Virus record (IMG/VR): IMGVR_UViG_3300037258_000282
Span: 1-64,000 of that record
DNA: 64,000 nt
Origin: a virus
Reading direction: 5' to 3' (one strand)
Numbering within the stretch: the stretch's first letter is position 1; each line of letters opens with the position of its first letter. Positions 49,467-51,767 of this stretch are shown one piece after another. The notes under the pieces are model-generated. The model ran no database searches. It had not been told where the DNA came from and was given only the letters and a program-made list of their open reading frames with translations. Position numbers and translations under genes: made by a program.

Positions 49467-49994
49467 TTATTCATCCTCAGTAGTGTCTGATATCATCTTG
49501 ATGTTACCGATAGCATATTTATTATCGAGATACACCTTAAAGTCGGTTCGATCAAAGATGTATTTCCAAAGCGAGGAAGATTTCTCGGCCATCTTGACCT
49601 TCACGTTCATATCTTCGATGACCTCGCCAGTCTCCCTGTCTACCGGCGCGACCCACCCGTTCTTAGTGGAGATCAAGTACTTACCCTCGAGAGCCTGCTC
49701 GACTAGTCCCGACCACCTATTCATTCCATCTTCAAATGTTATCTTGATGGGTATCTGGGACTTCTCCTTGAGAAAGCGAGACTTCTCAATGTTGATAATA
49801 AAGTCAAAGCCAAGCAGCTCCTTATCGGTGTTCTTATCCTGCCTCCTAGACACTATCCATATCGTATCGGCTCCAAAGTACACCCCCGTGTTATGACATA
49901 CGACACCATTCTCAAGTACGTACTGCTGGTTGCGTTCAACAGATATATCATACACTGACTGGTGCCCGACAGGTCTTATACTTTTTATTTTCAA
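49467..49994 (-). CDS. uvsX: UvsX C-terminal half preceded by a split-intein C fragment (35 aa)
   Basis: VYDISV...YVLENGVVCHN|TGVYFGAD..., KSRF.KE. Confidence 0.9.
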   Translation of the reverse strand: MKIKSIRPVGHQSVYDISVERNQQYVLENGVVCHNTGVYFGADTIWIVSRRQDKNTDKELLGFDFIINIEKSRFLKEKSQIPIKITFEDGMNRWSGLVEQALEGKYLISTKNGWVAPVDRETGEVIEDMNVKVKMAEKSSSLWKYIFDRTDFKVYLDNKYAIGNIKMISDTTEDE

Positions 49995-50311
49995 TTATCT
50001 TCCTCTTACAGTTATCGTCATGCCATCTCTTAACATATCATCAGTTTATCACGATCACTTATATCAGATACCAACTTCCACGATCCGTCATCCATCATAA
50101 ATTGATGGTCTTCAGAAACTGTTACCTTATATCCATCTTCAAACTCAACTTCGAAGCACCGTGGAGTTCCATCGCATAGAGTTTCTGGATTCCACACATG
50201 AGTAACTTGCATATCACCATCTAGCGTAACTACGCTGCTGCCCACACTCATACATTCCATAGGAAGTAGCGTACCATCGGCCATTTTCACTCTCGTTCCA
50301 GCGGCAACGCA
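49890..50311 (-). mobile_element. naturally split intein (IntN 50311-50033, IntC 49994-49890)
   Basis: blocks A and B on one ORF; blocks F and G (His-Asn, +1 Thr) on the next. Confidence 0.9.
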
Positions 50312-50956
50312 ACCACCAGATACCACCGGCTTTGAGTACATCTCCTGCGTCTGATACGTGTGGTTGATGACGACCATCGGTATGTTCTTCATCGGAAGGT
50401 GCGGAGTTACTATCCTGAACAGACTCTTGAGCTGCTTAGCTCGCGTCATATCGGCCGAGGACTTCTGATCCATCGCGTCCTCGACTTCCTTCTTCGACGC
50501 GATATTTCCAATCGAGTCGACCATGATGAAAACGCGATCGCCCTTTTTTAGCTTGGCGAGTTGAGCCGCGATATCAAACTTCAGCTCCTCGATATTGGTC
50601 ACGGGAGTGAGGACGACAGACTTCAGCGATATACCAAACATATCAAAGTATGACTTCGGCGTGCCGAACTCATTGATATAGAACAATATCACTCCATCTG
50701 GATACTTCTTTAAGTACTGAGACGCCAGGAACAAAGCGAAGCCAGACTTGAAGTTCTTTGACACTCCGGCGATTACCGTAAGTCCGGCCGTAAGTCCACC
50801 GTCGACCGAACCCGAGAGGGCCAAATTTATCATCGGCACCGACGTGGGAATGACGTCCCGATCGTTGAATATATCTGAATTTTCCAAAATATCAGTCGTG
50901 CTAATAGTGGAAGTTTCCAGTATCTTTTGCTGGAGGGTCAACTTTTCTGCTGCCAA
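50030..50956 (-). CDS. uvsX: UvsX (RecA-like) N-terminal half followed by a split-intein N fragment (93 aa)
   Basis: AGVSKNFKS, DSIGN.ASKKE, DMTRAK, SGG|CVAAGT...SEDH. Confidence 0.92.
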   Translation of the reverse strand: MAAEKLTLQQKILETSTISTTDILENSDIFNDRDVIPTSVPMINLALSGSVDGGLTAGLTVIAGVSKNFKSGFALFLASQYLKKYPDGVILFYINEFGTPKSYFDMFGISLKSVVLTPVTNIEELKFDIAAQLAKLKKGDRVFIMVDSIGNIASKKEVEDAMDQKSSADMTRAKQLKSLFRIVTPHLPMKNIPMVVINHTYQTQEMYSKPVVSGGCVAAGTRVKMADGTLLPMECMSVGSSVVTLDGDMQVTHVWNPETLCDGTPRCFEVEFEDGYKVTVSEDHQFMMDDGSWKLVSDISDRDKLMIC

Positions 50957-50957
50957 G

Positions 50958-51767
50958 TTACGACCTGTCCTTATCTGATAGGATGTTTGGATTGATTACT
51001 ACTATATCACTTCTGCCTGGAAGTGTCAACTTCTTTTGGAGTCCTGAGTTTGCCGCGAGGAGAAGTACGATAGCAAGCGGGTCGAATACTGACACTATGA
51101 CTACTATCAGGTATCTCACGGTCTTATCTAGAGCCGCCTGAGAGTTTTCAGAAAATAGAAGTTGAGCAACGTATAGAAGTGGGCCGGCGTCAGCTGACGC
51201 TTGGCTTACCTTAGACCTCGCGGCGATCAGCTCCTCGCTGTACTGCTGAGACGCGGTGAGGTGCTTATTTCTAGAATCCACTAGAGCTTGCCGAGTCTTG
51301 CGCTGACTCAGCTGCTCTCTAAGTGATAGAGACGCTCGATCGTTCTTGACGAGACTCTCTATAGCCTTATCTATCGCATCTATCTGAGTCTGTTCATCGT
51401 CTATGTAAGTCTTCTCACCTGAGACCTTAGCCTCAAGCAGTTGAATCTGCTCGACGTTACCTATGTTGGCCACTATGACGTGCTCGATGTGGGCCTTGGC
51501 TAGAAACCCATATACTCCCACGTCAGTTATGACTGACAGAACGCATATCGCCGCGATGAGATATGAGCGTATCGCGACAGAGGCCACCGGCCAGTTATGT
51601 TGAACCCACGACGCCGCGACCAGCTTTCCGGCCCCGAGGACGACGCCCATTATAGTCACGGGCCAGTAGGCGCCGACGAAGAGAGTGGTAAGTCCCTGAA
51701 TCGAGAAATACTCAGCTACGCCAGATAGACAGATCGCGACTATGAGGGCTATCGCGCTTACTATCAT
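50958..51767 (-). CDS. membrane protein with coiled coil (conserved in T4-like phages)
   Basis: S+.GL..LF.GA, G+YGFL.KAH, VFDPLA. Confidence 0.75.
   Translation of the reverse strand: MIVSAIALIVAICLSGVAEYFSIQGLTTLFVGAYWPVTIMGVVLGAGKLVAASWVQHNWPVASVAIRSYLIAAICVLSVITDVGVYGFLAKAHIEHVIVANIGNVEQIQLLEAKVSGEKTYIDDEQTQIDAIDKAIESLVKNDRASLSLREQLSQRKTRQALVDSRNKHLTASQQYSEELIAARSKVSQASADAGPLLYVAQLLFSENSQAALDKTVRYLIVVIVSVFDPLAIVLLLAANSGLQKKLTLPGRSDIVVINPNILSDKDRS
51001..51029 (-). promoter_or_regulatory. sigma70-type promoter for uvsX
   Basis: TTGACA-N17-TATAGT. Confidence 0.7.

Follow-up and report, generated by a model that had tools for sequence, protein, structure and literature searches.

In an uncultured T4-like phage, the gene for the UvsX recombinase lies in two pieces only 35 nt apart, each fused to part of an intein. 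The question raised by this arrangement is whether the pieces are reunited by protein splicing, and what became of the homing endonuclease gene (HEG) that many relatives carry between them. The DNA analyzed was a stretch of 64,000 nt (positions 1 to 64,000 of IMG/VR record IMGVR_UViG_3300037258_000282), referred to here as the window. Our reading, which we hold to be very probable, is that the single uvsX of this phage carries a class-1 mini-intein, naturally split, from which the HEG has been lost.

The interrupted uvsX gene and its intein

Both open reading frames (ORFs) lie on the minus strand, as determined from the ORF list and the raw sequence. ORF1 (50030-50956, 308 aa) begins with the N-terminal part of UvsX, the N-extein (residues 1-215; 50312-50956), which has a Walker A motif, AGVSKNFKS, and a Walker B motif, IMVDSIGN. 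It is recognized by phrog_97, phrog_8337 and its T4-like relatives, ends in PVVSGG and runs directly into a 93-aa segment (CVAAGT...VSEDH...KLMIC; 50033-50311) closed by a TAA stop codon (50030-50032). This segment, the N-terminal intein part (IntN), comprises block A (CVAAGT, starting with Cys1), block B (VSEDH) and an acidic tail. A spacer of 35 nt follows (49995-50029), in which the frames of both ORFs are closed. Since 35 mod 3 = 2, ORF2 (49467-49994, 175 aa) does not share the reading frame of ORF1. Read from a TTG codon, ORF2 encodes the 35-aa C-terminal intein part (IntC; 49890-49994), MKIKSI..VYDISV..NGVVCHN, with a basic N-terminus (MKIKSIR), block F (VYDISV) and block G (VVCHN). The 140-aa UvsX C-extein, TGVYFGAD.., then extends from Thr+1 to the stop codon (49467-49889). 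The spliced UvsX is predicted to have 215+140 = 355 aa, as homologues imply, and the genome (152.6 kb, 91% complete) contains a single uvsX copy. An earlier sequence-only reading of the window had already given both ORFs, the junction, the 93/35 division of the intein and the 355-aa product, all of which were borne out by the raw sequence and the homologues.

Family searches placed both pieces with UvsX and with inteins. ORF1 matched phrog_8337 at 2.8e-70 over residues 7-257, taking in the first 40 intein residues, and the UvsX-like phrog_97 at 2.5e-59, whilst ORF2 matched phrog_18112 at 3.6e-51 over residues 1-168, IntC included. As these PHROGs matches extend into the intein parts, families of split uvsX halves already exist. 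In Pfam, RecA and T4_UVSX_C were matched, together with weak Hint and Intein_splicing matches on both pieces; IntC matched Intein_splicing positions 122-155 at 8.3e-5.

The residues expected of a working intein are in place. Cys216 of ORF1, which is Cys1 of the intein, stands directly after SGG and is invariant in 16/16 sequences. In block B, Ser66 and His69 are invariant in alignments A6 and A8, Ser being the residue that the uvsX intein family has at this place. The block F aspartate (D16), H34 and N35 are invariant in alignment A1, as are T36 (Thr+1) and G37. These sequence comparisons confirmed the assignment of the locus as a uvsX gene cut by a split class-1 intein of the Cys1/Thr+1 type.

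The insertion site was defined from uvsX genes without the intein. At about 60 such loci in IMG/VR, N-extein residue 215 is directly in frame with C-extein residue 1, and the ten junctions that were printed read [VI]V[SG]GG/TG[IVS][YM]YS without a break (the slash marks the insertion point). T4 UvsX (PDB 3IO5) has VMGGGTGPMYSAD at this site. Since the intein-less homologues are unbroken across GG/TG, the insertion site is exact. Judging from the RecA family in general, it is presumably where the segment equivalent to DNA-binding loop L2 has its C-terminal end.

The fold was tested on L105, a contiguous relative of 132 aa that is 48% identical to the window IntN and stood in for the window halves. 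It was modelled with alignment A8, which holds contiguous inteins and IntN rows only; alignments combining IntN and IntC fragments with one contiguous intein were discarded. The model was all-beta with a HINT domain (pLDDT 82.4), and its top PDB matches were all inteins (gp41-1, NpuDnaE, Mtu RecA and DnaB; TMq 0.75-0.86), the best being the gp41-1 split intein 6QAZ (TM 0.84-0.86, rmsd 1.8 Å). By sequence, the window IntN itself matched DnaE intein chains in the PDB at E 3e-4. In the discarded alignments (A4 and A5), MAFFT had matched IntC (KVYDISV..EHYVLENG) with the second half of IntN (CFEVEFEDGYKVTVSEDHQFM), because the HINT fold has an internal pseudo-two-fold repeat; this repeat is a trap in the automatic alignment of split inteins.

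The position of the break is that of other split inteins. In alignments A6 and A8, IntN and its relatives terminate at one shared column, and IntN is therefore full length. Its residue 87 aligned to Npu DnaE residue 94 and, as Npu DnaE is naturally split between residues 102 and 103, the window and Npu breaks differ by no more than about 2 residues. The net charge is -10 for IntN and +3 for the first 12 residues of IntC, the acidic IntN and basic IntC pattern that is typical of known split inteins.

The spacer and the endonuclease tail

A tblastn search of 50,697 phage records found about 25 cultured T4-like phages that align end to end with both halves, inteins included. They include Proteus phage vB_PmiM_Pm5461/PM2, Yersinia phage vB_YenM_TG1, Escherichia phage HY03 and relatives, Klebsiella phage Lion_ER11, Enterobacter and Salmonella phages, Shewanella phage Thanatos-1, Vibrio phage vB_VmeM-32 (where a GenBank note reads "conserved domain HintC") and EniLVp02. 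The insertion site and split point are common to the window and these relatives (alignments A1, A2, A6 and A8), and the PHROGs matches together with this recurrence in many phages indicate that the pattern is not due to chance. The window N-extein is 47-59% identical to the UvsX N-halves of T4-like phages. Compared with the nearest relative, locus L009, identity is 59% for the N-extein, 59% for IntN, 74% for IntC and 47% for the C-extein, so the intein halves are conserved as well as the exteins. In the annotations of 6/6 carrier loci inspected, a HEG of 400-855 nt lies between the halves.

No such gene is present in the window, but its tail can be recognized. In the third frame the spacer reads a stop codon and then YVKRWHDDNCKRKII. 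The part at 49996-50031 (minus strand) gives KRWHDDNCKRKI, which makes up the latter half of a CxxC...H..C motif. L009, the closest relative of the intein, has an intact 234-aa HEG of the HNH+NUMOD3 type, and its counterpart of the spacer is a HEG tail ending RWHNEKCKRKIQ and stop; just 5' of IntC the L009 HEG reads ..CLYC..SRWHNEKCKRKIQ and stop. Corresponding HEG ends, each followed by a stop codon, are ..CPHC..TRWHFDNCKAKR in EniLVp02, KRWHNDNCKKRKLL in L020 and ..CPYC..KHFNNCKEFK in TG1, and these tails adjoin or overlap the start of IntC. The motif [RK][WH]Hx[DEN]NCK has one occurrence in the six frames of the 64-kb window, the spacer, and in about 470 kb of related loci it was found in HEG tails only, nearly always within the intein gap. 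A 29-aa peptide from the third frame gave a single, non-significant tblastn match in the phage collection (E = 6), to a NUMOD3 protein; the HEG footprint is based on the direct comparison with HEG tails at homologous loci and on the motif census.

At the DNA level (alignment A3), the window sequence AGATGGCATGACGATAACTGTAAGAGGAAGA..TAATTG stands opposite AGATGGCACAATGAAAAATGCAAAAGGAAAATACAATG of L009. The window TTG is aligned with the ATG of relatives, and the GAGGA Shine-Dalgarno sequence of ORF2 (50001-50005, 6 nt 5' of the TTG) falls within the HEG-tail codons K-R-K, where relatives have AAAGGAAA or AGAGGAAA. The alignment thus places the IntC Shine-Dalgarno inside HEG codons and makes the TTG the equivalent of the relatives' ATG. 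Of the CxxC..H..C motif only the H..C half remains in the spacer, and nothing homologous to the L009 HEG was found anywhere in the 152.6-kb genome, from which we conclude that the endonuclease is gone. The spacer is accordingly best read as the last 12 or so codons of a deleted HNH/NUMOD3-type HEG, and the locus as a derived, HEG-lost fractured gene. On its 5' side the deletion ended at the ORF1 TAA or no more than a few bases away. The claim that no endonuclease lies between the halves therefore stands for the gene itself, but the endonuclease is not simply absent, as a 35-nt tail of it remains.

These comparisons suggest the following history. The ancestral allele would have had a free-standing HNH/NUMOD3-type HEG between IntN and IntC, as many relatives still have. 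A deletion of about 700 nt, from just past the IntN stop to about 12 codons before the HEG stop, would then have removed the HEG, leaving the tail as the spacer. The tail would now give the IntC-UvsX(C) half its Shine-Dalgarno sequence and its start codon, an ATG since mutated to TTG. IntN, being acidic, would associate with IntC through the basic N-terminus of the latter, and the two would splice in trans, joining ...SGG to TG... to make the 355-aa recombinase.

Probable endonuclease loss among relatives

We scanned IMG/VR with the IntN alignment, which found at least 167 relatives, and classified the best 80 of the 167; the counts are of loci rather than lineages, with some near-duplicates among them. 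At 51 loci the gap is 700 nt or longer and holds a full HEG, as an ORF whose length is 129-579 aa (in most cases 200-300 aa), and a gap of 230-421 nt, containing a decayed HEG, was present at 6. Gaps shorter than 150 nt were found at 11 loci (23, 33, 36, 52 at four loci, 74, 107, 115 and 138 nt), a contiguous mini-intein of 130-160 aa at 9, and 3 could not be classified. With two more short-gap loci from a first scan (L015, 75 nt; L018, 142 nt), the short-spacer state has at least 13 other IMG/VR loci for the uvsX intein alone. The element had been put forward as unusual for want of an endonuclease, a view that these loci contradict, as does the description of gp41-7 (see below).

Several short-gap loci keep a HEG tail, for example L117 (GNIKRWHNDNCKEKR and stop) and L159 (NLKRWHNDKCKKRKL and stop). 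A set of alleles with near-identical flanks displays different amounts of HEG: L157 (2770-3571) has the full gene, L159 (979-1100) a gap of 52 nt with the tail, and L158 (2770-2875) a gap of 36 nt, whilst in L137 (2770-2860) and L016 the halves are fused in frame. The L158 junction is at ATAAAT, a sequence found at both ends in L157. In L137/L016, ..GAATAC is joined straight to GAGGAAATTATG, so that the earlier Shine-Dalgarno and start region is read as a linker, EEIM (..VEY/EEIM/KIKSI..); L137/L016 thus appears to be a split intein re-fused into a contiguous mini-intein. Contiguous mini-inteins at the same site were found at L016/L137, L099, L105 and L093. The deletions have differing end-points and on that ground are taken to be independent.

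Decay intermediates with in-frame fusions of two forms were seen during this survey. In L010 (2557-3105), IntC is directly preceded by what is left of a HEG, its NUMOD3 part alone (..NQNCKKKDLF-MKITNIK..). At L022 (2570-2893) and L114, a HEG tail is fused onto the end of IntN (..GNLNRWHNENCKHKME and stop).

At least three unrelated HEG types occupy the one gap: HNH+NUMOD3 (L009, L012 and L020), GIY-YIG/SegE-like (L006) and Vsr-like/DUF559/MTES_1575 (L021, L039 and L050), which argues for repeated invasion of the site. The same finding would suit an opposite order of events, in which the HEG-less split is ancestral, the window is a homing site that was never occupied, and relatives gained their HEGs later; homing, moreover, needs HEG-less recipients. 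We regard this as highly unlikely. The now-dead frame of the spacer encodes the RWHxxNCK[RK]K tail that is conserved in HNH/NUMOD3 HEGs. At the homologous place in L009, the nearest relative, ..CKRKIQ and stop is found, and L157, L159 and L158, with identical flanks, keep differing amounts of the HEG tail. As the CK[KR][RK]K tail is conserved among HEG homologues, loss would explain the spacer better than gain.

Beyond loss of the HEG at this locus, we lean slightly towards a wider view, that one allele has run repeatedly through a cycle of invasion, decay and occasional re-fusion, with the window intein a domesticated, immobile product of it. Any of the three HEG types would invade a mini-intein, which becomes split, and the HEG would then decay through deletions that differ in their end-points. 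Its last codons would be retained because they now supply the Shine-Dalgarno sequence and start codon of IntC. In some lineages a further deletion would re-fuse the halves and turn the Shine-Dalgarno and start region into a linker. On this model the window split intein would be kept only because its precise removal is improbable.

Expression of the halves and comparison with known systems

Both halves are probably on one transcript. Neither a terminator-like site nor significant RNA structure (z = 0.35; no hairpin) was found in or around the spacer, and a strong sigma-70-like promoter match lies 5' of ORF1 (TTGACA-17-TATAGT with TG, 51001-51029, minus strand; a consensus match only), which together make co-transcription likely. 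ORF1 has no ATG or GTG ahead of residue 40, and its likely start is a TTG 1 nt past the TAA of an upstream 269-aa ORF (TAA-C-TTG, 50954-50960). In a crude census, in which starts were picked Shine-Dalgarno first and without a gene model, 12/55 window ORFs had a TTG start with a Shine-Dalgarno sequence, which supports only that such starts are not rare in the window.

A 13-codon mini-ORF (MLRDGMTITVRGR and stop; 49995-50036) does exist across the spacer, its TAA adjoining the TTG of ORF2, and had been proposed to couple translation of the two halves. Coupling found no support: a Shine-Dalgarno sequence is missing from the mini-ORF, other short-spacer loci have no counterpart of it, and it differs in frame from the spacer reading that matches relatives, which is the endonuclease frame. 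We judged it incidental; the simplest view is that it is the HEG tail in a further reading frame. Initiation of ORF2 is sufficiently explained by the good Shine-Dalgarno sequence 6 nt ahead of its TTG.

Several observations weigh against an active split intein formed by loss of the HEG. Splicing is a prediction from sequence. The Hint-domain profile check that had been suggested for both ORFs did return matches, but the Pfam Hint scores are under the curated cut-offs. At -2 relative to its terminal Asn, the window IntC carries Cys (VVCHN), a position occupied by Thr or Ser in relatives, and the block F His is replaced by Gln, as it is in L009 and L010. ORF2 needs a TTG start, whereas nearly all relatives have ATG, and the collection's own gene call for ORF2 (P0001) is 162 aa, with an N-terminus 13 residues shorter that fits a start at an internal GTG (Val14). 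Finally, no exact match to the spacer was found in viral and metagenome contigs, which leaves the junction with no independent replicate there.

Some of these points would suit a decaying or inactive remnant, in which the halves do not splice and UvsX is either non-functional or a non-covalent, two-piece complex held by the intein halves. The TTG might be weak or unused in place of ATG, the 162-aa call truncates IntC (a product started at GTG would be without the first IntC strand), and the VVCHN and QQY substitutions are unusual. Without the HEG, the selfish drive that maintained the element is gone, and a split gene whose products assemble without splicing, Aeh1 nrdA, has been cited (Dassa et al., 2009; PMC2677866). 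We nevertheless consider this unlikely. Every catalytic residue is intact, the intein is conserved to the same degree as the exteins, and both exteins are intact in what is the sole uvsX of the genome. The 13 codons from TTG to GTG match the family consensus MKIKSIxxVGKKx, and so have been kept as coding. A strong Shine-Dalgarno sequence stands at ideal spacing before the TTG, with none before the GTG. On these grounds, and as ORF1 also seems to start with TTG and such starts are frequent in the crude census, the TTG at 49994 appears to be the better start of ORF2 and the 162-aa call is considered wrong.

It is extremely unlikely that the split is an artefact of assembly or sequencing, with an indel error in a real, contiguous mini-intein. 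Contiguous mini-inteins of the same family do exist at the same site, and this is a metagenome assembly whose junction has no independent copy. However, one indel cannot join the ORFs, as the IntC frame has a TAA abutting the TTG, with a TGA and a TAA just upstream. Sequencing errors would not yield a HEG-tail footprint in the third frame, and the at least 13 loci listed above share the short-spacer state.

Naturally split and with its HEG lost, as we read it, the locus has two consequences of its own. Two ORFs that gene callers label separately would encode one recombinase after splicing. The intein is also a candidate Cys1/Thr+1 split intein for protein ligation, for which orthogonal use is plausible, with many family members equally available. 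The family-wide series of decay and re-fusion is more interesting than the window locus itself. It offers many independent examples of the HEG-loss step, for which Dassa et al. had one locus, and some apparent re-fusions, and it suggests that the HEG tail persists because of the translation signals of the C-terminal half. The uvsX split intein is found, moreover, in coliphage relatives that have been cultured and can be handled with ease. In the full-text literature searched, which covers few subscription journals, no description of a uvsX split intein was found; matches for uvsX and intein were Dassa et al. (2009), where UvsX is a mere neighboring ORF, and unrelated papers. Notes in GenBank such as the one on vB_VmeM-32 show that the intein has come to the attention of annotators.

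The same phage has a second intein, outside the window, in the gp20 portal gene (G000:C1 about 87079-90138; L172:1080-4139, minus strand). The 1019-aa ORF matches Portal_T4 in two stretches (1.3e-159) and Intein_splicing over residues 325-712 or so (6.7e-12), a span long enough to hold an endonuclease domain.

Amongst known systems, the nearest in kind is gp41-7, a fractured helicase gene of a T4-like cyanophage that lacks an endonuclease and was assigned to step III of the gene-breaking model, in which the downstream half takes its start from the invading element and the HEG can afterwards disappear (Dassa et al., 2009, NAR 37:2560; PMC2677866). Here too, the two pieces are neighbors in one orientation, both carrying their part of a split intein, with no free-standing HEG, so the window would fit step III of this model rather than the canonical fractured gene with its HEG. 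As with gp41-7, a DNA-metabolism gene of a phage is concerned, the HEG has apparently been lost, and a HEG-derived control sequence is left upstream of the C-terminal half. In contrast, the gene interrupted here is uvsX, not gp41, by another intein allele. The leftover also differs, being a coding footprint of the HEG C-terminus with a Shine-Dalgarno sequence and start, whereas a hairpin was noted for gp41-7 and none is significant here. The HEG-lost kind of fractured gene was therefore known; the window adds a further member, in uvsX, at a late stage that recurs.

With the fractured uvsX genes of cultured T4-like phages, the window shares an orthologous intein (IntN/IntC about 45-60% identical), the GG/TG site, the split point and the catalytic residues. 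Those phages have a HEG of 400-855 nt (GIY-YIG/NUMOD3) and an ATG, in place of 35 nt and a TTG. The gp41-1 intein (6QAZ), which splices fast in trans and comes from a fractured gene of a phage, resembles it in size, N/C split ratio, phage origin and Cys1, and is the best structural match of the family model; it differs in its host protein, in sequence (about 26% identity) and in having Ser+1 rather than Thr+1. The cyanobacterial DnaE split inteins (Npu and Ssp) have the canonical split site, to within about 2 residues of the window's, an acidic IntN and basic IntC, and a block B (..DHKFM..) that resembles the window ..DHQFM... However, DnaE has Cys at +1 and its halves are encoded at distant places of a cellular genome, which is step IV in the Dassa model, whereas those of the window lie 35 nt apart, in a phage.

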